The notes beneath the pieces are model-generated. The model was not told where the DNA came from. It made no database searches and saw only the letters and a program-made list of their open reading frames with translations. A stretch of 56,606 nucleotides of DNA from a bacterium. Lineage in GTDB: Bacteria > Tectomicrobia > Entotheonellia > J063 > CAVPRW01. Where the stretch lies: assembly GCA_046727435.1 (NCBI GenBank), contig JBKPCR010000333.1:1-56606 (forward strand). Direction: 5' to 3'. Positions 6,871 to 46,683 of this stretch are shown one piece after another (within the stretch, counting starts at the first letter, position 1; every line of letters starts with the position of its first letter). A program made the translations under genes and the position numbers.

Positions 6871-7350
6871 TTGGTAGTTGTCCTGGCCGGCTGCGGTTAC
6901 CAACTCAGCGGGCGCGCCGGGACGATTCCGGGGAATCTGCAGAGCCTCTCCGTCCCGATGTTCACTAATGTTACCACCGTCCCCGGCCTCGAGCAATTGA
7001 TCACAAGGGCGGTGCGCACGCAATTACAACGGGATGGACGAGTGCGTTTAGGCACAGACGCCAGCTCGGCGGCGCAGCTCCGCGGCGAAGTCACGCACTA
7101 TGGATTATTGCTCCTGGCCACCGATCCTAGCGATTTCGCCCTGGAGTATCGCATTGAGGTGGAAGTACATGTCACGGTCGAAGACCTCCGACAGCGTCAG
7201 ACGCTTCTGGACCACAAACTGGCCGTCACCATCGACTATGTCGTGTCATCGCAGGTGGTGCCGAACGAAATCGCTCGTGAACGGGCCATGCTGGCAGCGG
7301 CGCGCGAGGCTGGCGATCGTGTCGTCAGCCTCCTGCTCGATCGGTTTTAA
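6871..7350 (+). CDS. lptE: LPS-assembly lipoprotein LptE (RlpB)
   Basis: Perfect lipobox L-A-G-C followed by GYQL (E. coli has AGCGWHL). The leuS-lptE-holA order is conserved. Coordinates use the first canonical start, TTG 6871, but that leaves only 7 residues before the lipid Cys. An in-frame CTG at 6805 with GAGGA 5 nt upstream is the more plausible start (see findings). Confidence 0.75.
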   Translation: MVVVLAGCGYQLSGRAGTIPGNLQSLSVPMFTNVTTVPGLEQLITRAVRTQLQRDGRVRLGTDASSAAQLRGEVTHYGLLLLATDPSDFALEYRIEVEVHVTVEDLRQRQTLLDHKLAVTIDYVVSSQVVPNEIARERAMLAAAREAGDRVVSLLLDRF

Positions 7351-17338: not shown

Positions 17339-17701
17339 ATGGCGCTCATCGTCTTCGTGCTCGGGGCAATCGTCGGCATGGCGGTGTTGATCTTTGCGTT
17401 TGAGAACCAGGAACCGGTGGCGCTGCGTTATCTGTATTCCTGGCAAACGCCGCCGACCCCTCTGTTTGCGATCATCCTGGTCTCCGTGGGAGCTGGGTTC
17501 GTGATCGCCAGTTTGTTTGGTCTGGCGGCATACCTGCGTGAGCGTAAGATTATCCGCCAGCAGCGCCGCACGATCGCCGACTTACAAGCGGAGTTGCGCA
17601 CCCTACGCACCCTTCCCCTTGACGTTCCCTCAGAAACCGGGGGTGGCCTGCACAGTTCCGACAAACCTGCGCCAGCCACTGGTGAGCTGCCACGGCGATG
17701 A
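17339..17701 (+). CDS. lapA: LapA (YciS)-domain inner-membrane protein
   Basis: Two TM helices around FENQEPVALRYLYSW, followed by a coiled-coil tail. ATGA overlap with lapB. SD GGAGGA. Confidence 0.75.
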   Translation: MALIVFVLGAIVGMAVLIFAFENQEPVALRYLYSWQTPPTPLFAIILVSVGAGFVIASLFGLAAYLRERKIIRQQRRTIADLQAELRTLRTLPLDVPSETGGGLHSSDKPAPATGELPRR

Positions 17702-18999
17702 ATGCCTGGGGCAGCCTGTCGCAGGAACTCGCCTCGCCGTTGGTTCTCATCCTGGCCGGGGTTTTGGTGGGCTTGGCAATCCTCCTGGTGGCGCGGCGCC
17801 ATCGCGTTCCTGAGGCGTTGACCTCGCAGCCGTTCGAGCGTGGCTTTGATCTGCTGCTCGAGGCGCGCTGGCAGGACGCAGCTGAGGTATTGAAAGCAGC
17901 GGTCAAAACCGATCCGAACCGAACCTTGGAATATTTTGAGCTCGGCAAACTGTTTCGGCGACAGGGGCAACCAGGGCGGGCAGCGCGGTTGTTCGAGCAG
18001 CTCAGAGCCCGTCCCGGCCTCGACCGCAGCATGAGCATCATGGTCCAGTACGAATTAGCCCTGTCCTACCGCGCTCTGGGGTGGTATGAACCAGCTGTCG
18101 AGCTGCTTGAACACGTGCTCGTGGCCGATCCAGCCCGCGCCGAAGCCCGGCAAGAACTCCGCCGCATGCATGAGGACAGGGGACGCTGGCAGCAGGCAGC
18201 GGCGCTCGAGATCCTACGCTTGAAGTGGGGTGAAACCCAGGACCATCGGACGCTGGCGGCGTTGCTGACGCAGCAGGGAAAAGTCGCCTGGGCAGCTGAT
18301 CAGCTGCATGAGAGCGCCGCGCATTTGCGTTCCGCGCTGGCGCTTGACCGTGACTGCACTGAAGCGGCGATCTACCTCGGCCGCGTTCTGCTGCGGCAAG
18401 GGAAATTGTCCCAAGCCTTCCGCATCTGGGATGAGCTGGCGAAGGCCAGGCCGGAAATGCTGTTTCTGGCCTTCCGGGATATGCAGCTGGCCTTTCGGCA
18501 GCTGAACAACGATGCGGGATGGGAGAGCTTCCTGCGCACCTTTACGGAGCGTCATCCCGGTGATCCCATAGGCCATCTCGCCCTGGCCGAGTGGTATGCT
18601 TCGCGTGGCCAAACCCAGGAGGCCATCCACTGCCTGCGTCAGGTCATGGATCTCGACCCCGTCTGTCGGGAGGCACATTTGGGCCTGCTGTCTCTCTGTC
18701 GTGAGCAAGGCGTCACCAGTGAGGTGCTTGATGGCTATGAGCAACTTGCCCAACATACCACCTGGCCCTCTGGTGGCCGCTTCCGTTGCCGAAGCTGCGG
18801 TCACGTGGCCTATGAGCCTTGCTGGCGCTGTCCGGCATGTCACGTGTGGGCCACTCCTGAGCGTCTCATCCCACAGCCGGGCGTGATGCCGGTGACGGCA
18901 GGGGAAATCATCTCGCCACTCAGTCATGCGACCATCGCCGCCCCTGCCCCGGTTAGGGTGACGCGTGATGCGCCCGTTCAGCCCCCATCCGAGCGATGA
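17698..18999 (+). CDS. lapB: LPS assembly protein LapB (YciM): TM + TPR + rubredoxin-like zinc finger
   Basis: N-terminal TM helix, multiple TPR repeats, and a C-terminal CRSCGHVAYEPCWRCPAC metal site. Confidence 0.85.
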   Translation: MNAWGSLSQELASPLVLILAGVLVGLAILLVARRHRVPEALTSQPFERGFDLLLEARWQDAAEVLKAAVKTDPNRTLEYFELGKLFRRQGQPGRAARLFEQLRARPGLDRSMSIMVQYELALSYRALGWYEPAVELLEHVLVADPARAEARQELRRMHEDRGRWQQAAALEILRLKWGETQDHRTLAALLTQQGKVAWAADQLHESAAHLRSALALDRDCTEAAIYLGRVLLRQGKLSQAFRIWDELAKARPEMLFLAFRDMQLAFRQLNNDAGWESFLRTFTERHPGDPIGHLALAEWYASRGQTQEAIHCLRQVMDLDPVCREAHLGLLSLCREQGVTSEVLDGYEQLAQHTTWPSGGRFRCRSCGHVAYEPCWRCPACHVWATPERLIPQPGVMPVTAGEIISPLSHATIAAPAPVRVTRDAPVQPPSER

Positions 19000-19014: not shown

Positions 19015-21636
19015 ATGGCCGCTGATACCCCGGTGATGCAACAGTATCGGCAACTGAAACAGCAATACCCCGATGCCATTCTCCTATTTCGGATGGGCGA
19101 TTTCTATGAGATGTTCTTCGAGGATGCCTGCTTAGCGGCGCCAATCCTCGAAATCGCATTGACGGCACGCGATAAGTCACACCCTCACCCTGTCCCTATG
19201 TGCGGCGTGCCCTACCATGCGGTCGACAGCTATATCGACCGTCTGCTCAAACACGGCCTGAAAGTAGCGATCTGCGAGCAATTGGAGGACCCTAAGGCCG
19301 CCACGGGGCTGGTCAAACGCGACGTCGTACGGGTGGTGACACCGGGTGCCATCATGCAGTCGACGGCGTTGATCGGCAACGAGAACAATTTCCTCGCCGG
19401 GTTATGCGGAGCGCACGAGGGGCTAGGGTTGGCCTTGGTCGATGTGTCGACCGGCGAGTTCAAGCTCACTGAGTTCATCGGCGAACAGGCCAACCGCAGA
19501 GCGGCTGACGAACTGCAGCGGCTGCTGCCACGGGAACTGCTCATACCGACCTCTTGGGGCGCCCAGGCGACGGCCTTGCCTGGCATTGAGGTCCCACCAT
19601 GGCAGGTCACACCACGTGACGATTGGCGATTTGATGCCGAACTTGCTTACCAGCGCCTGACACAACACTTTGGCACGCATTCGCTGGAGGGCTTTGGGTG
19701 CGAGGCAGCGACCTTAGCGGTGACGGCGGCAGGCGTGGTCCTTGAGTATCTGCAGGAGACGCAGCGCGCTGCCTTGACCCATATCCAGGGATTGTCCCGC
19801 TACTATGTTGATGATTTTATGGCCCTGGATGCCACTACCCAGCGCCACCTTGAGTTAGTGCGCAGCGCGGTAGACGCAACGCGGGATGGCACGGTACTTG
19901 ACCTCCTGGATCAGACGGTGACCGCGATGGGGGGGCGTCTGCTCCGAGGCTGGCTCCTTGAGCCATTGCTGCAGGTGGATGCCATTCGGCAACGACAGGC
20001 CGCAGTGGCGGAGCTAGTGGTAGGCTGGATGGTGCGTGAGGAGGCGCGTGAACTTCTGAAAGAGATTGCCGATATCGAGCGCATCGTCGGGCGGGTGAAC
20101 CTGGGGTTAGCTTCCCCGCGCGACCTGTGGGCCCTCCGGCAGTCGCTGCAGTCCCTCCCCCGTTTGGTCGACGTGATCACGGCGCTGAACGCCGATGCTT
20201 TGCAGCCGTATGTGAACGACTGGGAGACGCTGACGGATATCTACGATGATCTGGCCTGTGCCTTGAGCGACGACGCGGCGCATGCCACGCAGGTGGGTGA
20301 TGTCTTTCAGCCTGGCTACCATGCCGAACTGGACGAACTGCGGCAACTGCGTACCGATAGTCGAGGATTTTTAGCCGCCCTCGAGGCGAAAGAACGCGAA
20401 CGGACGGGCATCCCAGGGTTACGACTGCACTATAATCGGGTCTTCGGCTACTATATCGAAATCTCCAAGCGGGCCCTGCACCTGGTCCCCCCCGAGTATG
20501 AACGCCGTCAGACCTTAGTCAACGCCGAACGTTTTATCACGGCCGAGCTGAAAGTGCACGAGGAGCGCATCCTCGGAGCCGAGGAACGCATCGCAGCGTT
20601 GGCGCAGGAGCTGTTTCAGGCATTACAAGCCAGCGTAGCGCGGCAAACACGACGCCTGCAGGCGATGGCCCGGACGATCGCCGCTCTGGATGTCGTGATG
20701 AGCTTCGCCGCCGTGGCGCAGCGCCACGGCTATACGCGTCCAGAGATGGATGCAGGCGAGGTAATCGATATTAAGGCCGGGCGCCATCCGATCCTGGAAC
20801 GGAGCGGCGAGGGGAGGGGATTTATCCCCAACGATACCTACCTCGATCGATCCGAGCAGCGAGTCCTGATCCTCACGGGGCCGAACATGGCCGGCAAATC
20901 GACCTACCTGCGTCAGGTGGCGCTGATCGTGTTGTTGGCGCAGATCGGCAGCTTTGTGCCAGCCGAGCGGGCGCGCATCGGGGTGGTGGATCGCATCTTC
21001 ACGCGCATTGGGGCGCAAGATCACCTGCAGCGGGGCCATAGCACCTTCATGGTCGAGATGCACGAAACTGCCAATATCCTGCATAATGCTACGTCGCACA
21101 GCCTGTTGATCCTGGATGAAATCGGGCGCGGTACCAGTACCTACGATGGGCTAAGCATCGCCTGGGCGGTTATCGAACATATCACCCGCGCCGTGCGCGC
21201 CCGCACCCTGTGTGCCACGCACTACCACGAACTGGCCGAATTGGAGGTGCTGCATAGCGGCGTGAAGAACTACCACGTGGCGGTGCGCGAAACCCCTGAC
21301 GGCATCGCGTTTCTGCGGGTGCTTTTGCCCGGGAGCGTGAACCGTAGCTATGGCATTCAGGTGGCGCGTCTGGCGGGGCTGCCCACCGCCGTCGTCGAGC
21401 GTGCGATGCAGGTGCTCGATCAGTTAACGAAGCAGGGCACGACCCCTACACATGGGAAGCGTCGCAACAGCATGCAGGCTTTGCCCGATCCTAGCGCGCA
21501 GTTGTCGCTGTTTGAAATGCCGGGGCATCCGATCCTCGACCAACTGAGGAGTCTCGATATCACACGATTGACTCCCATCGAGGCTCTGACCACCATGCAT
21601 CGATGGCAGGAGATGATCAACAGTCCTGAGTCCTGA
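19015..21636 (+). CDS. mutS: DNA mismatch repair protein MutS
   Basis: N-terminal TPVMQQYRQLKQQYPDAILLFRMGDFYEMF, Walker A GPNMAGKSTYLRQ, and LILDEIGRGTSTYDG. Confidence 0.97.
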   Translation: MAADTPVMQQYRQLKQQYPDAILLFRMGDFYEMFFEDACLAAPILEIALTARDKSHPHPVPMCGVPYHAVDSYIDRLLKHGLKVAICEQLEDPKAATGLVKRDVVRVVTPGAIMQSTALIGNENNFLAGLCGAHEGLGLALVDVSTGEFKLTEFIGEQANRRAADELQRLLPRELLIPTSWGAQATALPGIEVPPWQVTPRDDWRFDAELAYQRLTQHFGTHSLEGFGCEAATLAVTAAGVVLEYLQETQRAALTHIQGLSRYYVDDFMALDATTQRHLELVRSAVDATRDGTVLDLLDQTVTAMGGRLLRGWLLEPLLQVDAIRQRQAAVAELVVGWMVREEARELLKEIADIERIVGRVNLGLASPRDLWALRQSLQSLPRLVDVITALNADALQPYVNDWETLTDIYDDLACALSDDAAHATQVGDVFQPGYHAELDELRQLRTDSRGFLAALEAKERERTGIPGLRLHYNRVFGYYIEISKRALHLVPPEYERRQTLVNAERFITAELKVHEERILGAEERIAALAQELFQALQASVARQTRRLQAMARTIAALDVVMSFAAVAQRHGYTRPEMDAGEVIDIKAGRHPILERSGEGRGFIPNDTYLDRSEQRVLILTGPNMAGKSTYLRQVALIVLLAQIGSFVPAERARIGVVDRIFTRIGAQDHLQRGHSTFMVEMHETANILHNATSHSLLILDEIGRGTSTYDGLSIAWAVIEHITRAVRARTLCATHYHELAELEVLHSGVKNYHVAVRETPDGIAFLRVLLPGSVNRSYGIQVARLAGLPTAVVERAMQVLDQLTKQGTTPTHGKRRNSMQALPDPSAQLSLFEMPGHPILDQLRSLDITRLTPIEALTTMHRWQEMINSPES

Positions 21637-21710
21637 GTCGCGAGCAAGTGAGATATCCTGTCTTTTCCTTAGCACTCCGCACTCAGGAGCACTCCGCACT
21701 CAGGACTCAG
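21624..21710. repeat. Heptamer/17-mer repeat array spanning the mutS stop and the epimerase 5' region
   Basis: TCCTGAG x2 (21624-21637). A perfect 17-bp tandem repeat GCACTCCGCACTCAGGA x2 (21672-21705). A 13-bp inverted repeat CTGAGTCCTGAGT (21626-21638) / ACTCAGGACTCAG (21698-21710). Confidence 0.9.
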
Positions 21711-21729
21711 CGGTTGAAAGGAGAGATGT

Positions 21730-22668
21730 ATGAAAGTTCTTGTGACCGGTGGTGCGGGATTCATCGGCTCGCACGTGACCGATCGGCTCATCGACTCCGG
21801 GGTAGAAGTCGTAGTGCTGGACAACCTTGCCTCGGGAAGGCGTGAGTCAATACACCCACGGGCACGCCTGTGTGAAGCGGACATCTGCGGGGAAAGCATC
21901 CGCACACTCATGGAACAGGAGCGCTTCGATTGCGTCGATCATCATGCGGCGCAGATGAATGTCCGGCGCTCGGTCGATGATCCGGTCTTCGACGCCCGCG
22001 TGAACATTCTCGGCTCGTTGAATCTCCTGCAGGCGGCGGTGGCGACTGGCGTCAAGAAATTCGTCTTCGCCTCGACGGGCGGCGCGATCTACGGCGAGCA
22101 ACTCACCTTCCCAGCCGATGAATCGCACCAGACCTGCCCAATGAGTCCCTATGGCGTCGCCAAGTTAGCGGTGGAGAAATATCTCGCCTTCTACGAAGCG
22201 GTCTACGGCCTGCCCTATACCGTGTTGCGCTATGCCAATGTCTATGGCCCCCGGCAGGATCCCCATGGAGAAGCCGGTGTGGTGGCAATTTTCAGCCAGC
22301 GCCTGCTGGCGCATGAACCGGCGATGATCAATGGCGATGGGGAACAAACACGCGACTTTGTCTATGTGGAAGATGTGGTACAGGCTAACGTGCTGGCCGT
22401 GACTACCGATCTCCGCGGCACATACAATGTCGGCACCGGGATCGAGACCTCGGTGAACGTCCTGTACGCCTATGTAGCCAAGCATGCCTGCTCCACGCAG
22501 GTTCCCCATCATGGACCACCAAAGGCTGGGGAGCAGCATCGTAGTGTCCTGGACAGTCGCAAGCTCCAGGGCGCCACGAACTGGACGCCAACCGTCTTAT
22601 TGGACGAGGGGTTACAGCGTACGGTAGCCTTCTTCGCCGAGTCAGGGTTGCGACGAAAAACCACTTGA
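21730..22668 (+). CDS. NAD-dependent nucleotide-sugar epimerase/dehydratase (extended SDR, GalE-like)
   Basis: GGAGFIGSH Rossmann motif and catalytic SPYGVAKLAVEKY (YxxxK), in 312 aa. SD AAAGGAGAG. Confidence 0.85.
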   Translation: MKVLVTGGAGFIGSHVTDRLIDSGVEVVVLDNLASGRRESIHPRARLCEADICGESIRTLMEQERFDCVDHHAAQMNVRRSVDDPVFDARVNILGSLNLLQAAVATGVKKFVFASTGGAIYGEQLTFPADESHQTCPMSPYGVAKLAVEKYLAFYEAVYGLPYTVLRYANVYGPRQDPHGEAGVVAIFSQRLLAHEPAMINGDGEQTRDFVYVEDVVQANVLAVTTDLRGTYNVGTGIETSVNVLYAYVAKHACSTQVPHHGPPKAGEQHRSVLDSRKLQGATNWTPTVLLDEGLQRTVAFFAESGLRRKTT

Positions 22669-22669
22669 T

Positions 22670-22698
22670 TTGACATCAGGCATTAGGTATGTTACACG
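22670..22698 (+). promoter_or_regulatory. Possible promoter of the DUF4390-ntrY operon (perfect -35, weak -10)
   Basis: TTGACA (22670-22675), 17-nt spacer, TACACG (22693-22698). It begins 1 nt after the epimerase TGA (22666-22668). Confidence 0.25.
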
Positions 22699-22897
22699 CC
22701 AGAAAAATCTCGCTAGTAGCGCCTCCCGTGCCATTCCTGGCGTGGGGGAGGGAAGAGCAAGGGATGGTGTGAGCCCCAGCTCACAGTGTAGGCCAGCTTC
22801 GCCAAGAGGTGAAACGCGGCTAAACAAGGGAAAGCAGACGCGTGGTAGTATCTGACCCAGACCACCGTAGACCGCGGTTTGGGAGAGCGGAGTCACG

Positions 22898-23497
22898 ATG
22901 ATCCGAATCCTCCTCCGCTGTTTCAGCGTCCTCCTTCCCAGCTGGGCGATGCTTGCAGCACCCGTTTGGGGGCAGCCGCAGCGGCCGCTTTTGCATGAGT
23001 TGGTGCTGACGCACACAGATCATGAGGTGCTCCTGCACATCGACTTACAGGGGGGATTTCAGCACGAGATCCTGGAGGCCATCGCAACTGGTATCCCGAT
23101 CACGGTCACCTATCACATGAGGTTGTATCGCAAACGGGGTTTGTGGTTCGATGAAGAGGTCCTCTCGAAGACCATTAAACATATTGTCAAATACGACGCC
23201 TTGAAAAAGCAGTACCATGTCAGTGAGATTAATGGGCTGTTTTCCAGCATAAAGGTGACCAAACACGAGCCCACCATGGTACGCTGGATGAGCGCCATTG
23301 AGGGGCAGCCGCTGATCCCTTTTCATCTCCTGCAACCGGGTGAAGAGTATTATGTAAAGGCGATGGCTGATTTGAGGGCGGTGAAGTCACCCTTTCCTCT
23401 CAGTCATATGCCGTTTGTCGCCAGTCTTTGGGATACGGGAACTCCCTGGACCGCGTCGAGTCCTTTCAGCATTAGCTCCCCCCCTTCACAACGCTAG
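22898..23497 (+). CDS. DUF4390-like exported protein (usual partner of NtrY/NtrX)
   Basis: Signal peptide MIRILLRCFSVLLPSWAMLAAPVWG. The core ITVTYHMRLYRKRGLWFDEEV...KYDALKKQYHV matches my memory of the DUF4390 pattern. It sits directly upstream of an NtrY-type kinase. Confidence 0.65.
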   Translation: MIRILLRCFSVLLPSWAMLAAPVWGQPQRPLLHELVLTHTDHEVLLHIDLQGGFQHEILEAIATGIPITVTYHMRLYRKRGLWFDEEVLSKTIKHIVKYDALKKQYHVSEINGLFSSIKVTKHEPTMVRWMSAIEGQPLIPFHLLQPGEEYYVKAMADLRAVKSPFPLSHMPFVASLWDTGTPWTASSPFSISSPPSQR

Positions 23498-23602
23498 GGA
23501 TCTATGGCCTGAGAGCAGCCTCCACGCCTCAGGAGGTGCGGTGTGTTGAGACGTGTATCGTGCGTCTGCTGCAAGTACCAGGCATACCTGTAGGAACCTC
23601 GC

Positions 23603-25843
23603 ATGCGCTATGCCAGTGATCAACCACGCATTGATGGGACAGCGCCAACCCCTGAGGAGCAGCGTCGCCACCGCCTGCGAAATTTTTGGACCTTCCTGGG
23701 CGTGACGTGTCTGCTCATCGCGCTGACGGGGGCGGAATTATATGTCCAGGGCCTCCACCGCGTCCTGCCCCTGGCCAACAATATTGTGATATTCGCCATC
23801 GTCAATCTGAACATAATCCTATTGCTGGCGTTAGTGCTCTTGGTCCTGCGCAACCTGGTCAAGCTGTACTATGAGCGGCGCGGCAAGATCATCGGGTCGC
23901 GGTTCCGGACGAAACTGGTCATCGCGTTTTTCGGTCTGTCCCTGACCCCATGCGTGCTCTTGGTGCTAGTGGCGAGCGGCCTGATCACCAAAAGCATCAA
24001 CAACTGGTTTAATGTGAGTATCGAGCGTTCGCTGGAAGATTCGCTGGAAGTGTCTCGCAATTATTACCGCCTGCTTGAGCAGGATGCTCTGCACTTCGGC
24101 GAGCAACTCCGCACAGTTCTTCTGGGGAAGGATCTGTTACGGAACGACCGAGCGCCGGCGCTGACAAAGTTGCTAGAGGAGAAGCGCCGGGAGTATCAAT
24201 TGAGCGCGCTCCAGGTCTTCGGCGCCAACCTTCAGGAATTGGCCGGTGCCGGGGGGCAAGTCGCGGGTGAACGGTTGACCACCGCCCAGGCCGACCTGCT
24301 CCGCCGACGTTCGACCGATGCGAGTACGGAAATCCAATCCGCTGGCAGGGGGGAGGTGATTCGCGGCATTGTGCCCATCGTGGCGCAGGGAGGTGTGGCG
24401 CCCCTGGCCTGGATTGTGCTGACGTACCATGTGCCGGAGAGCCTGGTGGCCAAGATGGGGGACATCGCCGAGGCGTTTGAGCAATACAAACAGTTGAAAA
24501 TCCTCAAGGCACCGATCAAGACCAGCTATCTCATCACGCTCCTGATGGTGGCGTTGCTGGTGATCTTTTGCGCCATTTGGTTTGGCCTCTATCTGGCGAA
24601 AGGGATTACGGTGCCCATTCAACATCTGGTTGAAGGGACACGTGCGGTGGCAGATGGCAACCTGGATTTCCGCGTCACCGCCACCAGCGACGATGAAATA
24701 GGTTGGCTCGTCCATTCCTTTAACCAGATGACCGACGATTTGCGCACCAGCAAGATGGCGCTTGAAGAGGCCAATGCGGAGCTCAAGGAGAGTAATCAGG
24801 AACTGGAGGCGCGCCGCAACTACATGGCAACAGTCCTCGAAAATGTGGCGGCGGGAGTGCTGTCACTCGACAAGCACGGCCGGGTGTCGACGATGAATCG
24901 CTCGGCCCAGGTGATGCTCGGCATCGACGCCCAAGCGGCCCTCGGGCGGGTGTATCGCCATGTGTTCAGCGCCGCCCATCTGGATTCCATGCGCGGGCTC
25001 ATGAAACGCATGGCGAGCAGCCGCCGTGAGAGCATCGCCGACCAAATTCAGTTGCTCGTGGGGGGCCGCGTGTTGATCCTTCTGGTGAACATCTCCTTGC
25101 TCCGAGACAGCGATAGCCACTACCTCGGGATGGTATTGGTGTTCGATGATTTGACCGAATTGATACGAGTGCAGAAACTCGCGGCCTGGCGTGATGTAGC
25201 CCAGGGCATCGCGCATGAAATCAAGAACCCCTTGACCCCTATCCAGCTCTCGGCGCAGCGGTTACGGCGGAAGTATCGCGAGCACTCAGGCGATTTCGAT
25301 GAGGTCTTCGACGAATGTACCCATACGATTATCACCCAGGTGGAAGGCCTCAAGGGGTTGCTCGACGAGTTTTCGGCGTTTGCGCGCATGCCAGAGTCGA
25401 ATCCGACCCCGACGGAGTTGCAGCCACTCATGGAGGAAGTGCTACAATTATATCGCGGAGCTCACCGTGACATCGAGCTGACGTTGTCCTGTGATCCTGC
25501 AGTCGCCAAGGTCAACGTGGATGGGGAGCAGATGAAGCGGGCGCTGATCAACTTGGTGGAAAACGCGATTGAGGCCATGAATGGCCGGGGGCGAGTGGAC
25601 ATCGTCACCAGTTTCGATGGGCGTCAGCAGTGCGTGTGCCTTGAAGTGCGTGACACCGGTGCGGGTATTCCGCCGCAGGTGCGTGACAAGCTGTTTTTAC
25701 CCTATTTCACGACCAAAAAGGGGGGATCAGGCTTGGGGCTCGCGCTTGTCAATCGCATTGTCGCCGACCACGGCGGGCGCATCTCCGTCCGGGATAACAC
25801 CCCGCGAGGCAGCATCTTCGCGATCGAGCTACCGGTAGTGTGA
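23603..25843 (+). CDS. ntrY: NtrY-type sensor histidine kinase (multi-TM, HAMP, PAS, HisKA, HATPase)
   Basis: H-box IAHEIKNPLTPIQLSAQRL, N-box NLVENAIEA, G-boxes DTGAGI and GGSGLGLALV, a HAMP segment and a PAS segment. Confidence 0.85.
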   Translation: MRYASDQPRIDGTAPTPEEQRRHRLRNFWTFLGVTCLLIALTGAELYVQGLHRVLPLANNIVIFAIVNLNIILLLALVLLVLRNLVKLYYERRGKIIGSRFRTKLVIAFFGLSLTPCVLLVLVASGLITKSINNWFNVSIERSLEDSLEVSRNYYRLLEQDALHFGEQLRTVLLGKDLLRNDRAPALTKLLEEKRREYQLSALQVFGANLQELAGAGGQVAGERLTTAQADLLRRRSTDASTEIQSAGRGEVIRGIVPIVAQGGVAPLAWIVLTYHVPESLVAKMGDIAEAFEQYKQLKILKAPIKTSYLITLLMVALLVIFCAIWFGLYLAKGITVPIQHLVEGTRAVADGNLDFRVTATSDDEIGWLVHSFNQMTDDLRTSKMALEEANAELKESNQELEARRNYMATVLENVAAGVLSLDKHGRVSTMNRSAQVMLGIDAQAALGRVYRHVFSAAHLDSMRGLMKRMASSRRESIADQIQLLVGGRVLILLVNISLLRDSDSHYLGMVLVFDDLTELIRVQKLAAWRDVAQGIAHEIKNPLTPIQLSAQRLRRKYREHSGDFDEVFDECTHTIITQVEGLKGLLDEFSAFARMPESNPTPTELQPLMEEVLQLYRGAHRDIELTLSCDPAVAKVNVDGEQMKRALINLVENAIEAMNGRGRVDIVTSFDGRQQCVCLEVRDTGAGIPPQVRDKLFLPYFTTKKGGSGLGLALVNRIVADHGGRISVRDNTPRGSIFAIELPVV

Positions 25844-25866
25844 GGGACGTCGAGGAAAGGACGAGC

Positions 25867-28074
25867 ATGGCCAAGGGGCGTATTCTGATCGTCGATGACG
25901 AGACCAGTATCGTGCGCTCACTGGAAGGGATTCTGGCTGACGAAGGGTTTGACGTGGTCCAGGCCCGCGATGGTGAAGCCGCGCTCGCGCTCCTCCAAGC
26001 GCAGTCCTGCGATCTCGTGCTGCTCGACCTGTGGATGCCGGGGATCGATGGTATTCAGACGTTGCAGCGCCTGAAGGCCATGCAGACCAATGTGTGCATC
26101 ATCGTCATGTCGGGACATGGTAATATCGAAACCGCCGTCAAAGCCACCAGGCTGGGGGCCTTCGATTATCTGGAAAAACCGTTGTCGCTGGATAATGTGC
26201 TGAGTTCAGTTAATGCCGCTTTTGATCATCTCTGGAAGACCCGCGATCATCACTGGGTGGAAGTGGTGCGGGCTGCCGTGGGGCCTCTCATTGGGGTCAG
26301 CGGCGCACTGCAAGAGCTGCGCACCCAGGTCGACGCGGCGACGCAGCACGAAACACCGCTGTTGATCGTTGGTGAGCCGGGGAGCGGCAAAGAATTTCTG
26401 GCTCGGCTGCTGCACCAGCGGCAGTATCCCCGAGGCCCGTTCGTGCGGCTCTACTGCGCTGCAGTATCCGACCAAGAGTTAAAGCAGGTATTCGGTGGTA
26501 GGGATAGCCTGCCCAGGCTCCTGCGGGACATGGAGGACACTGATCTCGACCACGACTTCGAGGCGGGAACGCTGTATCTGGATGGACTGGAAAGGCTTTC
26601 GACGCCAGTGCTGCATGCCTTTACCAGGCTCATGAGCGCCTCTGGGCCCCAGGCTTGGCGCGGCGGGGCACCGCTGCGGATGCGCGTCATGGCGGCGACG
26701 CTCCCAAGCGCCTGGCCGCATTCCGGGATCGAGGTTCTGCCGGCAGAGCTGCAACGGGTGTTTGCTTCCTCGACCCTGATGACGATCCCTTTGCGCCACC
26801 GTGTTGAGGATATTCCACTGCTGGCGGAGTATTACTTGCGCTGCTCGGCGCGTAAATATGGCTCGATTCCCAAGGAATTGCATCCTGAGGCGCTACAGGC
26901 GCTGATGGGGTACGATTGGCCCGGCAATGTGAACGAGCTGAAGGCGATGCTGGAGCGCGTTGTGCTGACGACGCCGAGGGGGATCATCGGAGTGGAACAT
27001 CTCCCGCATCACGTGATCGAACCGGCTGGGACCTCAGGCAACGTGACTTCTGGGGCACCCTATGCGTCGTTGAAAGAGGCTCGGAGGGCTTGGGAGCGCC
27101 AGTATCTGGTCGAGCAACTTCGCAAGCATCACTGGGATGCTGCGCACACGGCGCAAGCGCTGCGGCTGAACGAACGCAGCCTGCAACGCCGACTACAGGT
27201 GTTGGGTATCAGGGGGAACGAGCTTCCTAGCCGTTCGACGCTGCCGCAACGGACGTTGCAGCGGAGCGTCGTGATCCATGGCCAGGGCCTCCAATCTGGC
27301 GTCAAGACTGGCATGATTCTCTCGCCACTGCCGACGAATAGTGGCATCCTGTTCGGCGACATCGCGACTGGGGCAACCGTCCCGGCCGCGGCGGCGCATG
27401 TGGAGTCGACGGGCTATGCGACGACCCTGCGCCGTGGCTTGGTCACGGCACGAACCGTCGAGCACATCATGGCGGCGCTGCATATGTACCGCCTGACCAA
27501 CGTTCTGGTGAAGATCGGTGGTGAGGTACCGTTTATGGACGGCTCGGCGCGAGATTTCTGCCAACTGATCGAAGCGGCGGGGGTAGAGGAGCAAGCGGCC
27601 GAAGCTCCCCTGCTGAAGATTTGTGAGCGGCACGTGTGGGGACAGGAGGAGCCGGACCAGAAACATTTCGTCATCGAGCCCGCCTCACACCTCACCATCA
27701 CGTACCATCTGCAATACCCACCGCCGATCGGACGCCAGCAGTATACCTTTGTCGCGGATAGTCCAGAGCACTTCAAAGCCACAATCGCACCCGCACGCAC
27801 CTTCGGTTTCGTCAAAGAGATCGAACACTTGCATGCGCTTGGTATGGCCAATGGCGGGCGCCTGACGAACGTCATCTTGGTGGACGAGTCGCGGATCATC
27901 AACACCGAGTTGCGCTTTCCTGATGAGTTCGTGCGACATAAGGTCCTCGACCTCCTGGGCGATCTGTATTTAACTGGTAAGTTCGTGCAGGGCAAGATCA
28001 CCGCGTATCTGACCGGGCATACGGAGAATCTGGCGCTCGTCAAATTCCTCCTGGGATTGTCAGGTGAGGCCTAG
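25867..28074 (+). CDS. lpxC: Fusion protein: NtrX/NtrC-type response regulator (REC + degenerate AAA+ + Fis HTH) joined in frame to UDP-3-O-acyl-N-acetylglucosamine deacetylase LpxC
   Basis: One open frame with no stop from 25840 to 28074. REC is about 25882-26193 (ILIVDDE, LVLLDLWMPG, VMSGHG, LEKP). AAA+ is about 26287-26967 (GEPGSGKE, LYLDGL, WPGNVNEL). HTH is about 27070-27210. LpxC is 27247-28071 (QRTLQRS..GQGLQSG, TVEHIMAAL, ARTFGF, FVRHKVLDLLGDLY, LTGH). ATG 25867 is preferred over GTG 25840. Confidence 0.9.
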   Translation: MAKGRILIVDDETSIVRSLEGILADEGFDVVQARDGEAALALLQAQSCDLVLLDLWMPGIDGIQTLQRLKAMQTNVCIIVMSGHGNIETAVKATRLGAFDYLEKPLSLDNVLSSVNAAFDHLWKTRDHHWVEVVRAAVGPLIGVSGALQELRTQVDAATQHETPLLIVGEPGSGKEFLARLLHQRQYPRGPFVRLYCAAVSDQELKQVFGGRDSLPRLLRDMEDTDLDHDFEAGTLYLDGLERLSTPVLHAFTRLMSASGPQAWRGGAPLRMRVMAATLPSAWPHSGIEVLPAELQRVFASSTLMTIPLRHRVEDIPLLAEYYLRCSARKYGSIPKELHPEALQALMGYDWPGNVNELKAMLERVVLTTPRGIIGVEHLPHHVIEPAGTSGNVTSGAPYASLKEARRAWERQYLVEQLRKHHWDAAHTAQALRLNERSLQRRLQVLGIRGNELPSRSTLPQRTLQRSVVIHGQGLQSGVKTGMILSPLPTNSGILFGDIATGATVPAAAAHVESTGYATTLRRGLVTARTVEHIMAALHMYRLTNVLVKIGGEVPFMDGSARDFCQLIEAAGVEEQAAEAPLLKICERHVWGQEEPDQKHFVIEPASHLTITYHLQYPPPIGRQQYTFVADSPEHFKATIAPARTFGFVKEIEHLHALGMANGGRLTNVILVDESRIINTELRFPDEFVRHKVLDLLGDLYLTGKFVQGKITAYLTGHTENLALVKFLLGLSGEA
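27247..28071 (+). other. lpxC: LpxC catalytic domain segment of the fusion ORF
   Basis: Aligns end to end with E. coli and Aquifex LpxC as I remember them. Equivalents of Glu78/His79 (codons 27460-27465), Thr191/Phe192, His238/Lys239/Asp242/Asp246 and His265 are all present. Confidence 0.88.
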
Positions 28075-28075: not shown

Positions 28076-28795
28076 ATGGGGTGCCAGGGATCCGGCTATC
28101 AACGGCTCGGACTGGTGGGCGTGTGGATGCTCTGGCTGCTGCATCTTGGGCTGTGCACCACTTCCGGGGGTGAAGCAGGCCAGGCCTTAGGGCCCGACGC
28201 GGTGGTGGGGCGTGTCCAAAGCCGGTATGAGCGCACGACGCGTTTGCAGGCACGCTTCCGGCAGGAAACCCGCGTGCCTGGCTTCGATCAGGTCCAGACC
28301 GGGGAAGGGCAGGTGTGGATTCTGAAACCGGGGATGATGCGCTGGGATTACACCAAGCCAGAGCGCCAAACCATCATCGCCAACGGCGAGACGCTGTGGA
28401 TCTATCTTCCCGAGGATCGGCAGGTGATTCGCGACCACATCAACCACTCTCTGGGAACGCGTACGCCTGCCCTCTTCCTGGCGGGGCAGGCCCGGCTTAC
28501 CGATCTGTTTATGGTGGCGAGGACGTCGCCCCAAGGCCCTAGCGAAGGAGGCTTGCTTCAGCTAGAATTAACGCCAAAAGGTGAAGCTTTACCCTATACT
28601 CAGGTCTATCTCGGGATCGATCCCAGCTCCTATCTGGTGAAGCTGGTACGGGTGATCGATGCCATAGGAAACATGACCGCCATGTGGTTCACCGACATCG
28701 ATACGGAGGCGGCTGTTGCGCCCTCGTTATTTCAATTTCACGTTCCACCGGGGGTAGAGGTCATGGCTCCACCCGTGTTCCCCGGGCCACGATAA
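28076..28795 (+). CDS. lolA: Outer-membrane lipoprotein carrier protein LolA (or LolA-like)
   Basis: Signal peptide, then VQSRYERTTRLQARFRQE...GEGQVWILKPGMMRWDY...GETLWIYLPEDRQV, the typical LolA N-terminal pattern. ATG 28076 lies 1 nt after the upstream TAG. Confidence 0.8.
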   Translation: MGCQGSGYQRLGLVGVWMLWLLHLGLCTTSGGEAGQALGPDAVVGRVQSRYERTTRLQARFRQETRVPGFDQVQTGEGQVWILKPGMMRWDYTKPERQTIIANGETLWIYLPEDRQVIRDHINHSLGTRTPALFLAGQARLTDLFMVARTSPQGPSEGGLLQLELTPKGEALPYTQVYLGIDPSSYLVKLVRVIDAIGNMTAMWFTDIDTEAAVAPSLFQFHVPPGVEVMAPPVFPGPR

Positions 28796-28812: not shown

Positions 28813-29895
28813 GTGGAAAATTTGCATATGGTGGAAATCATCCTCAAAGTCGCGATGGCCTTCTGTCTGCTCATTGTCATCCATGAGCTTGGGCATTTTC
28901 TGGTCGCGAAATATCTCGGTATCGGGGTCGAACGTTTTTCGATCGGTTTCGGGCCGAAGCTTGCCAGCTTCCGCTGGCGGGAGACCGAGTACATGTTGTC
29001 AGTGATTCCCCTGGGTGGTTACGTCAAGCTCATCGGTGATGACCCTCGCGGCGCCGATGGCGATCATCCTCGAGCCTTCCTCAATAAGCCCATCAGTCAC
29101 CGGATTGCGGTGGTGGCGGCAGGCCCGCTGGCGAACTTTGCGTTGGCGGTGGTGATTTTAGCGAGTGTGCACTGGGTGGGCGTTCCGACGCCGCAGATCT
29201 CTGAGCTGCCGGAGGTTGGGGAGGTCGTGGCCGATTCTCCGGCGCAGCAGGCCGGTTTACAACCAGGAGATCGCATTCTGATGGTGAATGGCGCACCAGT
29301 CAGCAAGTGGGAGGACCTGGTGCAGACCATCCACCGGCATGTGAATACCCCGCTTCAGCTCAGGGTGCAGCGCGGCACACAAACCTTCGACGTGACGGTG
29401 ACCCCGAAGGCAGGCAAGATCATCAAAGATTTAGAAGAGGTGGAAGTGGGGCTGATCGGCGTGGCGCCCCACATGGATTTCACGGTGATGCGTTACTCTC
29501 CGCCCGTCGCCCTGTGGAAAGGTGTGGAGAAAACCTGGGAGCTCAGCGCCCTGACCGTCGTGTCGCTGGTGAAGATGGTGCAGGGGAAGATCTCGCCCAA
29601 ACATCTCGCCGGCCCCGTAGGGATTTTTCAGATGGCTGGGCAGCAGGCGAAAGTCGGGCTGCTGCCGCTGGTCTCGTTGATGGCCGTGCTCAGCATCAGT
29701 TTGGGAATCCTCAACCTCTTTCCCATCCCGGTGCTGGATGGCGGACATATCCTGTTCTTCGCCTTAGAGGGCTTGTGGGGACAGCCTATCAGCCCACGCA
29801 AGCAGGAGATCGCCACGCAGGTCGGCTTGTTTCTGCTGGTAGCGCTCATGCTGACCGCCTTCTATAATGATCTGCTACGCATCTTTGCCAACTAG
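28813..29895 (+). CDS. rseP: Site-2 (RIP) zinc metalloprotease RseP
   Basis: HELGHFLVAK zinc site, a PDZ domain (GLQPGDRILMVNG), and the C-terminal NLFPIPVLDGGH motif. GTG 28813 has GGGAGG 5 nt upstream. ATG 28828 is the alternative start. Confidence 0.9.
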   Translation: MENLHMVEIILKVAMAFCLLIVIHELGHFLVAKYLGIGVERFSIGFGPKLASFRWRETEYMLSVIPLGGYVKLIGDDPRGADGDHPRAFLNKPISHRIAVVAAGPLANFALAVVILASVHWVGVPTPQISELPEVGEVVADSPAQQAGLQPGDRILMVNGAPVSKWEDLVQTIHRHVNTPLQLRVQRGTQTFDVTVTPKAGKIIKDLEEVEVGLIGVAPHMDFTVMRYSPPVALWKGVEKTWELSALTVVSLVKMVQGKISPKHLAGPVGIFQMAGQQAKVGLLPLVSLMAVLSISLGILNLFPIPVLDGGHILFFALEGLWGQPISPRKQEIATQVGLFLLVALMLTAFYNDLLRIFAN

Positions 29896-31676: not shown

Positions 31677-31772
31677 TTAGCCGTGCAGAATAGGACTATA
31701 GTGGCTTGACCACAGGTTCAGTGTGCCTCCCGGTTGAGCGTACTGGCCACTGCACAGGCGATGGGGAGGCAG

Positions 31773-31799
31773 AAATGGGCGATGCGCCCATTTTTTTTT
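31773..31799 (+). terminator. Rho-independent terminator (proS terminator and/or rimP-nusA leader attenuator)
   Basis: AAATGGGCG-atg-CGCCCATTT stem followed by a run of nine T (31791-31799). This is the only classical stem + U-tract terminator I see in the window. Confidence 0.75.
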
Positions 31800-44787: not shown

Positions 44788-45004
44788 CGTGACCCCTTGA
44801 GATGCGAGGTAATGCCCTCGGCAGTCGCGGCAGCGCGTAGAACCATCATCCAGTTCGAAGCCGCGTCTTCAGCGAGGGCGACCCTGACGTGTGCACCCGA
44901 TGCCCGTTGGGTCTGCCGCCGGACTGCCAGATTGCCCCGAGCGAGTGCGGCAGTCAGTGCACAGCCTCGTCGACTCACAACCGCTGCGAGCCTCACCGAG
45001 CTGC

Positions 45005-45033
45005 ATTGTGCCATAGGCGAGAAGCCTTGTCAA
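45005..45033 (-). promoter_or_regulatory. Candidate sigma70 promoter of ftsK
   Basis: On the minus strand: TTGACA (45033..45028), 17-nt spacer, CACAAT (45010..45005). Confidence 0.4.
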
Positions 45034-45071
45034 TCGCCTGTTGCGGGCAGCACTCAGGTGACGAGCCGGTT

Positions 45072-45100
45072 TTGACAGCGCCAGCCTGGCATGCTAATAT
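45072..45100 (+). promoter_or_regulatory. Candidate sigma70 promoter of the DUF151-PDZ gene
   Basis: TTGACA (45072-45077), 17-nt spacer, TAATAT (45095-45100). This is the best consensus match in the window. Confidence 0.55.
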
Positions 45101-45190
45101 CGCTGCCAATGTTGCCCATGTGTGCCCCGCCGCTAGGCGAGCGTCGGCGTTGGCTTCGAAGGGTTGTGGCGGCAAATGAGGAGAGATGTC

Positions 45191-45991
45191 ATGACAAGGC
45201 GGGGCTGGATCACCTGCGCTTTGGCCATCATCGGGGCTGGCTGGACCTTCTTCCTGGCAGCGCAGCCGGTTACGGGGACCCTGCTGGAGGTGCGCGTCCG
45301 CGGGGTCACGGTCGATCCGCAAGCCGGCTCCCCCGTCGTGCTGCTCGAGGAACTCCAGGGTGATCGCGTGCTGCCCATCTGGGTCGGTGTCTTTGAGGCG
45401 CGTGCCATCGCCATGGAAATGGACCAAGTGGCGCCGCCGCGACCGATGACCCACGACCTCATCAAGAATATCATCGAGGGGGTGAAAGCCCAGGTCACCA
45501 ACGTGGTGATCATCGACCTCAAAGACAATACCTTCTATGCGCAGATCGCCCTGCACACCGGGGCGGCAAGCCTGCAGATCGATGCCCGCCCCAGCGATGC
45601 GATCGCGCTCGCCTTGCGGGTCAAGGCCCCCATCTACGTGGCGAAAACGGTGCTCGACCGCGCCCCGGCGATCGAACGGCACGGCGACGAACCGACAGCG
45701 ATGACGGTGCTGAAACGCCATGGGTTGACGCTGCAAAATCTCACGGCCGCGCTGGCGACGCATTTTCAGCTGCCGACGCCCGACGGGGTGTTGGTCTCCG
45801 ATGTCGAAGCCGGCAGCGCGGCGGAGCGCGATGGCGTGCGTCGGGGAGACGTCATCGTGGCGGCCAACCAGGGGAAAATCGTCAACCTGCAAGCCCTCGA
45901 GTCCACCTTGAGTCGAGGGAGCGACGTGTCGCTACAGATCGTCCGGGGCGATAAGCACCTCACCGTCGTGCTCCACCGTCCAACGCCGTAG
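45191..45991 (+). CDS. Bifunctional-nuclease (DUF151/BFN) domain protein with N-terminal signal/anchor and C-terminal PDZ domain
   Basis: DUF151 core: PVVLLEE...RVLPIWVGVFEARAI...PRPMTHDL...DARPSDAIALALR. PDZ: GVLVSDVEAGSAAERDGVRRGDVIVAANQ. N-terminus: MTRRGWITCALAIIGAGWTFFLAAQ. GAGGAG lies 7 nt before ATG 45191. Confidence 0.8.
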   Translation: MTRRGWITCALAIIGAGWTFFLAAQPVTGTLLEVRVRGVTVDPQAGSPVVLLEELQGDRVLPIWVGVFEARAIAMEMDQVAPPRPMTHDLIKNIIEGVKAQVTNVVIIDLKDNTFYAQIALHTGAASLQIDARPSDAIALALRVKAPIYVAKTVLDRAPAIERHGDEPTAMTVLKRHGLTLQNLTAALATHFQLPTPDGVLVSDVEAGSAAERDGVRRGDVIVAANQGKIVNLQALESTLSRGSDVSLQIVRGDKHLTVVLHRPTP

Positions 45992-46065: not shown

Positions 46066-46593
46066 TTACATGTATTGCCGCAACAGATATTGATAGAAGG
46101 GATCCTGCAACACGGCTTTTTCGCGGTTCAGCGCCGTGACGCAGTACTCAAATTGATCTGAGAGCTTGCGGAAGAGCGTCTCTGTGGGTTTGGTACGGTC
46201 CATTTCGGCGACGATCAGATACGCCTCCTTGCCCTGGGCAATGTAATATTCTGGGCTGACCGCACGTCGTCGCCGCGTCAGGCTCTCGGGATAGAGCCCA
46301 ACGATGAACAGCGTGTAATCACCGATGTGCTTGCGGGCTTCGCGCTCATCGGCCGGCGCTTGGTCGTGCACGTCGAGCAACATGTCCACGAGGTGCTCGA
46401 GGCGTCGGCCCTGCTGATCTCGCAGCCGAAACAGGTTGTCAACATGGATGAATTCGACCAGGAGGTCGGCGACATAGCGGATGAGATCCCGGTCGCGCAG
46501 GTCAATCTGCTCAAAGCTCATCTCGGTGAGCGCGCCGAACATCTTGCGGATGGGGTGATCTGTGGGCACTTGTCGCCGTCTCTCAAGGCTCAC
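46066..46593 (-). CDS. Hypothetical protein (175 aa), no family recognised
   Basis: Protein-like composition. GTG 46593 has GAGGGGG 7 nt upstream, and a good promoter lies just upstream. Confidence 0.6.
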   Translation of the reverse strand: MSLERRRQVPTDHPIRKMFGALTEMSFEQIDLRDRDLIRYVADLLVEFIHVDNLFRLRDQQGRRLEHLVDMLLDVHDQAPADEREARKHIGDYTLFIVGLYPESLTRRRRAVSPEYYIAQGKEAYLIVAEMDRTKPTETLFRKLSDQFEYCVTALNREKAVLQDPFYQYLLRQYM

Positions 46594-46653
46594 CCTCTGG
46601 CCCCCTCACTGCGTGCCTGGGCGTTACGACGTGTGACGACCTCAGTGCCTTGC

Positions 46654-46683
46654 ATTGTACGGAGGAGCCCCGGCGCTTGTCAA
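46654..46683 (-). promoter_or_regulatory. Candidate sigma70 promoter of the 46066-46593 gene
   Basis: On the minus strand: TTGACA (46683..46678), 18-nt spacer, TACAAT (46659..46654). Confidence 0.5.

Follow-up and report, generated by a model that had tools for sequence, protein, structure and literature searches.

Can a single polypeptide be both a response regulator and LpxC, the enzyme of the committed step in the synthesis of lipid A, and what would the regulator then do to the enzyme? The question was raised by a 56,606-nt stretch of DNA (positions 1 to 56,606 of contig JBKPCR010000333.1, assembly GCA_046727435.1; hereafter the window, 60.6% G+C) from a bacterium placed in the Entotheonellia lineage of the Tectomicrobia. 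An earlier reading made from the letters alone (the sequence-only reading) had described one open frame on its forward strand (25840..28074) as a complete NtrX/NtrC-type response regulator that continues, in frame, into a full-length LpxC. The open reading frame (ORF) indeed ran without interruption, for 744 codons from GTG 25840 or 735 codons from ATG 25867, and was divided as follows.

25867..28074, + strand: fusion gene (ATG 25867 to TAG 28074) for receiver, AAA+, Fis-type helix-turn-helix (HTH) and LpxC, 735 amino acids (aa) plus stop; alternative GTG start at 25840
25879..26241, + strand: receiver domain, aa 5-125 (PF00072 Response_reg on residues 15-124, E 7.6e-31)
26284..27021, + strand: degenerate AAA+ module, aa 140-385 (partial PF00158, and AAA_lid_14 on residues 319-397)
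27064..27204, + strand: Fis-type HTH, aa 400-446 (sub-threshold HTH_8 match, NtrX alignment and helices in the AlphaFold2 (AF2) model)
27205..27243, + strand: variable linker, aa 447-459 (IRGNELPSRSTLP), free of stop codons
27244..28071, + strand: full-length LpxC domain, aa 460-735 (PF03331, TIGR00325 and PDB LpxC matches)

The fusion gene likely starts at ATG 25867, because a Shine-Dalgarno-like GAGGAAAGGA lies upstream of this codon and most homologues are 735-aa proteins beginning with MAKGRILIVDDE; residue numbers of motifs are counted from this ATG. The junction between HTH and LpxC (27180-27260) held no stop codons. Among the in-frame start codons around it (GTG 27199, TTG 27202, TTG 27256, GTG 27271 and ATG 27313), only GTG 27271 was preceded by a weak GGAG, 4 nt upstream, and initiation there would cut off the conserved first strand of LpxC. 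The earlier claim that the junction lacks a good internal start thus held, and it is plausible that separate production of LpxC from this gene is excluded.

The fusion in other genomes

Relatives were collected from a search of 5.8 billion clustered proteins, which listed 120 matches ranging from 96% down to 40% identity. Among the matches listed, more than 100 clusters had the full-length architecture, nearly all of them 700-750 aa long with the same domains; at least 59 of these fusion clusters were 68-96% identical to the window protein and dozens were 40-48% identical. Their sources were JGI, ENA, NCBI and Logan assemblies, some with contigs of 2-4 Mb, and the NCBI labels of the relatives read Candidatus Tectomicrobia at 80% identity and Nitrospinae at about 40%. 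Continuous fusions were also present, among the matches listed, in GTDB species representatives of several phyla.

In a sister genome (89% identity), the gene was intact and the gene order identical, i.e. LapA, LapB, MutS, epimerase, DUF4390, kinase, fusion, LolA, RseP, ProS, RimP and NusA, while relatives at 41% identity kept the core order of DUF4390, kinase and fusion followed by LolA, RseP and ProS. The linker preceding LpxC was poorly conserved (47% identity in close and 15% in distant relatives) and modelled with low confidence, its predicted local distance difference test (pLDDT) score falling below 50 at residues 450-455. Its sequence and length varied across the 24 long fusions that were aligned, yet none of them carried a stop codon there. 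The absence of a stop between HTH and LpxC was thus borne out in the window, in these linkers and in the sister genome.

That a lost stop codon or an indel joined separate ntrX and lpxC genes is a possibility that a single window alone cannot rule out and that a few assemblies with a split gene (e.g. 340- and 412-aa members on one contig) would seem to favour, but its probability becomes negligible in view of the uninterrupted frame that over 100 independent clusters, drawn from four data sources, share down to 40% identity, of GTDB species representatives in several phyla that have this frame too, and of a variable linker that never contains a stop. The fusion is confirmed, on these comparisons, as real and not an assembly artefact.

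The splits themselves occurred in some long-read assemblies, and affected both proS (390 + 193 aa; L085 14051-15788) and the fusion (P0122 and P0124). They are probably frameshift errors, and single assemblies can consequently mislead on fusion status.

The top 150 matches of a second search, of 1.84 billion representatives at 50% identity, included about 15 clusters with the long form and at least 25 with the short form (described below); the receiver-LpxC family is real but of modest size. In the source annotations, its members go by 'UDP-3-O-acyl N-acetylglucosamine deacetylase' or by 'NtrX', and none of the curated models in the NCBIfam search describes the whole fusion.

Receiver, LpxC and AAA+ domains

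The LpxC half was examined with a Pfam scan of the fusion protein and with NCBIfam equivalog models that have curated cut-offs. PF03331 matched residues 470-737 with 262.2 bits (cut-off 27; E 7e-78) and spanned profile positions 1-266 of 268, and the TIGR00325 lpxC equivalog was passed with 231.6 bits against a cut-off of 187.25. The motifs TVEH (530-533), ARTFGF (643-648), FVRHKVLDLLGD (688-699) and LTGH (715-718) put E532/H533, T645/F646, H691/K692/D695/D699 and H718 at the positions of E. coli E78/H79, T191/F192, H238/K239/D242/D246 and H265, respectively, so that the zinc ligands (H533, H691 and D695) and the catalytic residues (E532, H718, T645, K692 and D699) are all present. Every motif quoted in the sequence-only reading could be located in the translation, where those of the LpxC half lined up with their catalytic counterparts in the P. 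aeruginosa enzyme, and the reading's description of a complete LpxC with every zinc ligand and the acid/base pair was upheld by both family models and by this residue alignment.

The best solved-structure matches of this half were the LpxC proteins of P. aeruginosa, E. coli and A. aeolicus (E down to 5e-51). A Foldseek comparison of the AF2 model, in which the LpxC part had a block pLDDT of mostly 80-95, with crystal and nuclear magnetic resonance structures of LpxC yielded template modelling (TM) scores of 0.82-0.92 and root-mean-square deviations of 2.1-2.6 Å. Beyond the part aligned to P. aeruginosa LpxC, the protein continued for only 6 residues, and an E. coli-type C-terminal tail was absent. 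The zinc and catalytic residues were invariant in 24 out of 24 diverse long-form fusions, and the catalytic set was kept in all 40 short-form fusions, with the position of E. coli T191 being Thr in 35 and Ser in 5 of them. From these intact residues we infer that the LpxC domain is catalytically competent.

The receiver at the other end of the protein was equally complete. It carried the motifs IVDDE (8-12), LLDLW with D54, MSGHG (81-85) and LEKP (102-105), and with them the phospho-site quintet of D10, D11, D54, S82 and K104. Across the 24 long forms (39-85% identity), D10, D54, G83-H84-G85 and K104-P105 were invariant, D11 was nearly so, and position 82 was either Ser or Thr, and each of the 40 short-form fusions had D10, D11, D54, S82 and K104. 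In all 64 fusions that were checked residue by residue, the sole parts kept were a phosphorylatable receiver and a catalytic LpxC.

Two genes directly upstream of the fusion provide it with a candidate input:

22898..23497, + strand: DUF4390 protein, 199 aa, first gene of the sensor module (PF14334, 101 bits)
23603..25843, + strand: NtrY-like membrane histidine kinase, 746 aa, HAMP-PAS-HisKA-HATPase (Pfam HAMP, PAS, HisKA and HATPase_c)

The kinase gene, whose stop codon (TGA 25841-25843) lies 23 nt before ATG 25867, had a weak NtrY_N match and no NCBIfam equivalog. Its orthologues (33-46% identity) stood directly upstream of long, short and unfused forms of the system alike, and the kinase is presumed to be the cognate kinase of the fusion. 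The DUF4390 protein has a signal-peptide-like N-terminus (MIRILLRCFSVLLPSWAMLAAPVWGQ), and its gene was found upstream of the kinase in distant relatives as well (L001-L004, L022, L042, L065, L085, L086 and L088). An association of DUF4390 and NtrY genes with the fusion, which had been put forward as a point to check, was therefore recovered from the synteny of the sister genome and of the relatives at about 41% identity.

The module between receiver and LpxC turned out differently. Sigma54_activat (PF00158) matched residues 150-259 with 42.7 bits and reached profile positions 1-111 of 168 only. The Walker A motif GEPGSGKE (169-176) was present, and its G169, E170, G172 and K175 were invariant in the 24 long forms. 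The Walker B motif reads LYLDGLE, with Gly in place of Glu, versus GTLFLDEI-type sequences in the orthologous regulators that are not fused to LpxC (five loci, see below), and the Glu position varied among the long fusions (G/E/A/N/D and others). The window protein lacked GAFTGA, as did each of the 24 aligned fusions, but five of five unfused orthologues had it. Moreover, sensor I reads MAATL versus A(S/T)N, and the arginine-finger segment LPAELQRVF versus FREDL(Y/F)(Y/F)RL, in the fusion and in those orthologues, respectively. The AAA+ lid domain was retained, and the lowest AF2 confidence fell on the degenerate AAA+ segments and the two linkers.

The HTH was borderline by profile, HTH_8 scoring 20.9 bits on residues 416-453, just below its 22-bit cut-off, yet the segment aligned with the HTH of Brucella NtrX and was modelled as three helices (402-420, 425-432 and 436-445). 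In one long-form subclade (P0087, P0090, P0091, P0101, P0108 and P0110), it was degenerate or partly deleted. The earlier expectation of four Pfam families on one chain thus came true for PF00072, PF03331 and, in part, PF00158, whereas HTH_8 (PF02954) stayed marginally under threshold.

Conservation of the individual domains was expressed as mean identity to the window protein, in close (n = 58) and distant (n = 49) relatives:

LpxC: close 0.89, distant 0.53
HTH: close 0.84, distant 0.34
Receiver: close 0.83, distant 0.54
AAA+ lid: close 0.78, distant 0.36
AAA+ core: close 0.64, distant 0.24

The AAA+ core was thus the least conserved domain in the fusions, a sign of relaxed constraint, although it ranks first in conservation among the unfused orthologues (0.67 versus 0.55 for the receiver). 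In seven clusters (P0061, P0062, P0064, P0065, P0069, P0070 and P0086), it had disappeared altogether, leaving receiver, HTH and LpxC. These proteins were 77-93% identical to the window protein in their LpxC half, and their deletion junctions differed while the HTH was kept. Two of them (P0062 and P0069) were found on contigs from three independent samples (L087 1980-3416 and L088 5913-7388), where the order of epimerase or DUF4390, kinase, the deleted gene, LolA, RseP and ProS marks the same locus. Because deleted orthologues hold this same locus, the AAA+ core appears to be dispensable even in very close relatives.

Of the complete NtrX/NtrC-type regulator proposed at the outset, the receiver and the domain order therefore stand, and the AAA+ part, without GAFTGA, Walker B Glu, sensor I and arginine finger, does not. 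Judged by these motifs, the regulator half is decayed and not a functional sigma-54 activator. Its AAA+ module would be the vestige of such an activator, which may still bind nucleotide and act as a scaffold, and the HTH, which this clade has kept, may contribute dimerisation or binding to DNA, although this would not be the conserved function of the family.

Gene arrangements and the proposed control of LpxC

A scan of GTDB species genomes (among the matches listed) and a tblastn synteny survey of loci with 10 kb on either side revealed three states of the system. In the first, the long fusion described above, genomes were labelled Nitrospinota, Nitrospina, Thermodesulfobacteriota, Syntrophaceae and Desulfomonile. 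The second is a short fusion of 416-447 aa, consisting of receiver, linker and LpxC and often located directly after the same kinase; its labels were Deltaproteobacteria, Thermodesulfovibrionia, Binatia, Holophagales, Thermoanaerobaculia, Acidobacteriota and Syntrophobacter, and it included an isolate, Desulfopila sp. IMCC35006. In the third, lpxC, DUF4390 (detected in L042 and L065), kinase and regulator are separate genes in this order, as seen in five genomes labelled NC10, Acidobacteriota and Deltaproteobacteria:

L042, 6068-11392: unfused cluster; further unfused clusters in L055, L059, L063 and L065

Across the three states, the kinases were 33-46% and the receivers 43-61% identical to those of the window, versus 22-35% for unrelated ones at the same loci, and long, short and unfused states appear to be one orthologous system. 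GAFTGA and FREDL(Y/F)(Y/F)RL occurred in all five unfused regulators, together with Asp-Glu in Walker B (four read GTLFLDE[IV], and L055 reads GTIFMDEV). The one that was scanned (L042) matched Sigma54_activat over its full length with 232.7 bits and HTH_8 with 39.9 bits. By their motifs, these regulators are intact sigma-54 activators beside a stand-alone lpxC. An adjacent sigma-54 promoter driving lpxC was unsupported, however, as none of the five loci had a convincing TGGCAC-N5-TTGC-like site; a sigma-54 promoter scan of window positions 21600-25900 likewise yielded nothing convincing.

In a neighbor-joining tree of 90 LpxC domains, a distance-based analysis of a limited sample in which bootstrap distances were calculated with a faster variant, the fused domains (long and short) formed one clade in 98 of 100 bootstraps. 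This clade was separate from stand-alone LpxC, including the copies neighbouring the unfused system, and long and short forms were interleaved inside it. Such a topology is consistent with a single ancient fusion, after which AAA+ and HTH were lost repeatedly.

Two further observations concern individual short forms. A divergent subgroup (L058, L060, L061, L062, i.e. Desulfopila sp. IMCC35006, 9977-11326, L064 and L068) was characterised by Ser at the T191 position, 'ARSFNTF' for 'ARTFGF' and 'TSHG' for 'TGH', as well as by extra residues inserted into the first LpxC subdomain, and is possibly a specialised paralogue. In a Thermoanaerobaculia metagenome-assembled genome (L034), a duplicate of the LpxC C-terminal part was located 1 kb downstream of the receiver-LpxC gene (~4380-4670); it was rejected as a second LpxC, as it is a decayed partial copy with an internal stop and FVRCRNLD for FVRHKILD.

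These comparisons lead to the reading that we prefer, and to which we would assign a probability of roughly 60%: one chain couples a phosphorylatable receiver to LpxC, and phosphorylation of Asp54 by the kinase controls LpxC post-translationally. The periplasmic DUF4390 protein and the NtrY-like membrane kinase would form a two-component system with the fusion as its output. The kinase would phosphorylate Asp54, and the resulting conformational switch of the receiver would alter LpxC output after translation, most likely through an autoinhibition of the active site that is relieved or imposed by analogy with CheB, or alternatively through a phosphorylation-dependent oligomeric state, stability or turnover. 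Control of LpxC is the simplest reading because receiver and LpxC are kept in every fusion looked at in detail, usually beside the same kinase. The history would then start from a cluster of lpxC, DUF4390, kinase and activator, in which lpxC was joined to the regulator gene at its 3′ end, after which AAA+ and HTH decayed and were repeatedly lost.

The sequence-only reading had offered two control logics, namely phosphorylation gating lipid A flux or substrate occupancy of LpxC feeding back on DNA binding. The comparative data favour gating over feedback, because the HTH is degenerate or deleted in some long forms and absent from the short form while receiver and LpxC are never lost.

A broader version, in which the fusion is the cell's only LpxC and places the flux of lipopolysaccharide (LPS) under CheB-like two-component control in several phyla of uncultured Gram-negative bacteria, replacing or supplementing FtsH/LapB proteolysis and having evolved from an lpxC-adjacent sigma-54 activator whose AAA+ motor decayed to a scaffold, is more tentative, and its odds fall slightly short of even. 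No second lpxC was found in the 56.6-kb window, which is too short to speak for the whole genome, nor within 10 kb on either side in the relatives examined, apart from the decayed L034 fragment.

This limit on the lpxC count is one of several points that weigh against control of LpxC by phosphorylation. Phosphotransfer and its effect on LpxC, which may be positive or negative, are predictions drawn from the observed architecture, conservation, motif states and synteny. The predicted TM score was 0.51 for the full-length model and 0.70 for an AAA-deleted orthologue, the structure output came without inter-domain contacts, and a docked receiver-LpxC interface is not claimable from these models. 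The tree, as mentioned, is distance-based and limited in sample. The homologue of LapB near the fusion suggests that proteolytic control may operate as well. Finally, the HTH of this clade is 84% conserved and kept even where the AAA+ core is deleted, and a transcriptional role may therefore persist and could even be the main one here.

The latter observation also speaks for an uncoupled bifunctional protein, i.e. a transcription factor and an enzyme without allosteric communication, LpxC being attached for co-expression, stoichiometry or co-localisation. Consistent with it, the alignment of the N-terminal half with Brucella NtrX runs from end to end and takes in the HTH, and NtrX, which likewise has no GAFTGA in the alignment, is generally known as a functional regulator. 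Against this, the HTH is lost or degenerate in some long forms and absent from 40 of 40 short forms, its score lies below the Pfam cut-off, and the phospho-site is present in all of these proteins; a receiver with LpxC as its sole output is hard to explain without coupling. We therefore regard an uncoupled protein as unlikely.

Receiver and pseudo-AAA+ module might instead determine the half-life of LpxC, as a degron or adaptor that depends on phosphorylation and stands in functionally for the C-terminal FtsH degron of the enterobacterial enzyme. LpxC here ends 6 residues after the catalytic core without an E. coli-type tail, LapA and LapB homologues are encoded 4 kb upstream, FtsH is found near the locus in distant relatives, and enterobacterial LpxC is controlled by proteolysis (PMC6339880). 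Short forms without any AAA+ part argue the other way. Regulated proteolysis seems quite unlikely as the specific route, yet as a variant of post-translational control it is compatible with phosphorylation acting on LpxC.

The notion, raised in the sequence-only reading, that the LpxC domain is a sensor of UDP-3-O-acyl-GlcNAc or of the product on behalf of the regulator half, with a separate housekeeping lpxC doing the catalysis, finds some encouragement in the Desulfopila-like group (T191S, 'ARSFNTF'), which looks like a specialised paralogue. It is nevertheless hardly probable, given that zinc ligands and acid/base residues are invariant across phylum-level divergence, that TIGR00325 is passed, that LpxC is the most conserved domain while the would-be output modules AAA+ and HTH decay, and that the loci examined hold no other lpxC than the L034 fragment.

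Neighbouring genes and related systems

The fusion is embedded in a neighbourhood that is rich in genes for LPS and outer-membrane biogenesis (LptE, LapA/B, LpxC, LolA and RseP), of which the following lie closest:

17339-17701, + strand: lapA-like ORF, 120 aa, two predicted membrane helices (L085 and L001-L004 have a LapA_dom annotation at this position)
17698-18999, + strand: lapB/yciM-like gene (TPR repeats and Zn_ribbon_LapB; NF008757 182.8 bits, below the cut-off of 363)
28076..28795, + strand: lolA, outer-membrane lipoprotein chaperone (PF03548; TIGR00547 139.9 versus a cut-off of 112)
28828..29895, + strand: rseP-like site-2 metalloprotease, M50 and PDZ (PF02163, PDZ; start set from homologue lengths of 355-360 aa)

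The lapA-like ORF overlaps the start of the lapB-like gene, and the pair is located 4 kb upstream. In E. coli, FtsH degrades LpxC with LapB as adaptor. The lolA ATG (28076) follows the fusion stop codon (TAG 28072-28074) after one nucleotide, and lolA was also downstream of the fusion in L001-L004, L014, L016, L085 and L086. The rseP-like gene is probably part of the same transcription unit as the fusion. A single strong terminator hairpin was located after proS (31771-31795), preceded only by a weak match inside the rseP-like gene; as the counts from the promoter and terminator scan were no higher than in shuffled sequence, only this hairpin was used. A promoter-like block upstream of the DUF4390 gene (22664-22700; CTTGATTTGACA ... 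TATGTTACA) was conserved in L085 and L088, as were the Shine-Dalgarno sequence and ATG of that gene. The block, which the consensus promoter scan missed, is a candidate for the promoter of the operon or for a region bound by a regulator.

Further away, the leuS-lptE-holA arrangement was conserved (4143-6746 and 6871-7350, the latter LptE with 49.9 bits). The window encodes a second response regulator with an enzymatic output (48264-49544), in which a receiver (residues 125-230) and a GGDEF diguanylate cyclase follow about 120 N-terminal residues without a Pfam family. The ORF at 46327-48090 specifies a class I/II aminotransferase (residues 230-578) preceded by about 230 residues without a Pfam match at E<=1e-5, which may reflect a wrong start of this long ORF or an extra N-terminal domain. 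Two ORFs on the reverse strand (44993-45892 and 51644-52750; 298 and 367 aa) had no Pfam match at E<=1e-5 and may represent proteins that have escaped annotation or frames left open by chance in G+C-rich DNA. Scanning the window with Rfam and for tRNAs returned nothing.

Control of LpxC is central to outer-membrane biology, and is known to proceed via proteolysis (FtsH/LapB/YejM in enterobacteria, other proteases elsewhere) and via indirect transcriptional effects. Direct, signal-dependent control of the enzyme by a membrane kinase dedicated to it, together with a periplasmic partner, would, if true, be a different solution, and would point to an envelope-sensing function for DUF4390/NtrY-like systems. 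The stepwise evolution of a regulatory device would moreover be visible in its intermediates, from unfused activators beside lpxC, over fusions with a decaying AAA+ module and clean AAA+ deletions, to a minimal receiver-LpxC. For annotation, the names 'LpxC' and 'NtrX' each conceal the other half of the protein.

Among solved structures, that of Brucella abortus NtrX (PDB 5M7N/5M7O/5M7P), a known regulator, matched residues 1-448 best (E 5e-53), over the whole length. It shares the order of receiver, AAA+ and Fis-type HTH, the absence of GAFTGA and a NtrY-like HAMP-PAS kinase partner, but retains the Walker B Asp-Glu (LYLDEV) where the window protein, the more degenerate of the two, has Asp-Gly, and has no enzymatic domain. 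The NCBIfam NtrX equivalog (NF051870) gave 244.1 bits, short of its cut-off of 600, and the closest unfused orthologues are true GAFTGA activators rather than NtrX. NtrYX has been tied to cell-envelope and LPS homeostasis, and its loss in R. sphaeroides raised lpxC mRNA 8.8-fold and increased LPS, indirectly (PMC7240162).

Stand-alone LpxC proteins (E. coli, P. aeruginosa and A. aeolicus) were 33-37% identical to the LpxC half in structure-based alignments and have all zinc and catalytic residues in common with it. The fusion differs from them by about 460 N-terminal signalling residues, by the missing C-terminal tail and by its place in a clade of fused proteins only. In E. coli, that tail is the FtsH degron. 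This role of the tail is cited as reference B22 in PMC3333781. The only other widely annotated LpxC fusion, LpxC-FabZ (NF009667, PRK13188), carries a C-terminal dehydratase, from the neighbourhood of the same pathway, and not a signalling partner; the match of PRK13188 to the window protein covered the LpxC part only (positions 4-298 of 464; 182 bits versus a cut-off of 465), without FabZ.

Two-component control of lpxC does have precedents. DVU2934, an NtrC-family regulator of D. vulgaris, has lpxC as its only mapped target (PMC3333781; bioRxiv 10.1101/2021.11.05.467447), and in S. fumaroxidans lpxC adjoins the operon of a regulator orthologous to DVU2934 (PMC3333781). As an lpxC-dedicated two-component regulator whose S. 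fumaroxidans orthologue is encoded beside lpxC, DVU2934 resembles by description the unfused clusters reported here, but its control is transcriptional and involves separate proteins. DVU2934 and NtrYX thus act at the transcript level, and the fusion would shift control onto the protein itself. Full-text literature searches returned no description of a receiver-LpxC or NtrX-LpxC protein, in line with the earlier statement that no characterised protein of the REC-AAA-HTH-LpxC type was known.

The nearest parallels in design are CheB, PleD and RpfG, which combine a receiver with an enzymatic output. In CheB, the receiver mediates autoinhibition of the enzyme, and the short form (416-447 aa) has the CheB layout of receiver, flexible linker and hydrolase. 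Unlike in CheB, the output is a biosynthetic zinc deacetylase instead of a signalling enzyme, and the long form carries relic AAA+ and HTH parts in between. Response regulators with enzymatic outputs are therefore familiar; what the present proteins would add is an output that is itself the committed enzyme of lipid A synthesis.

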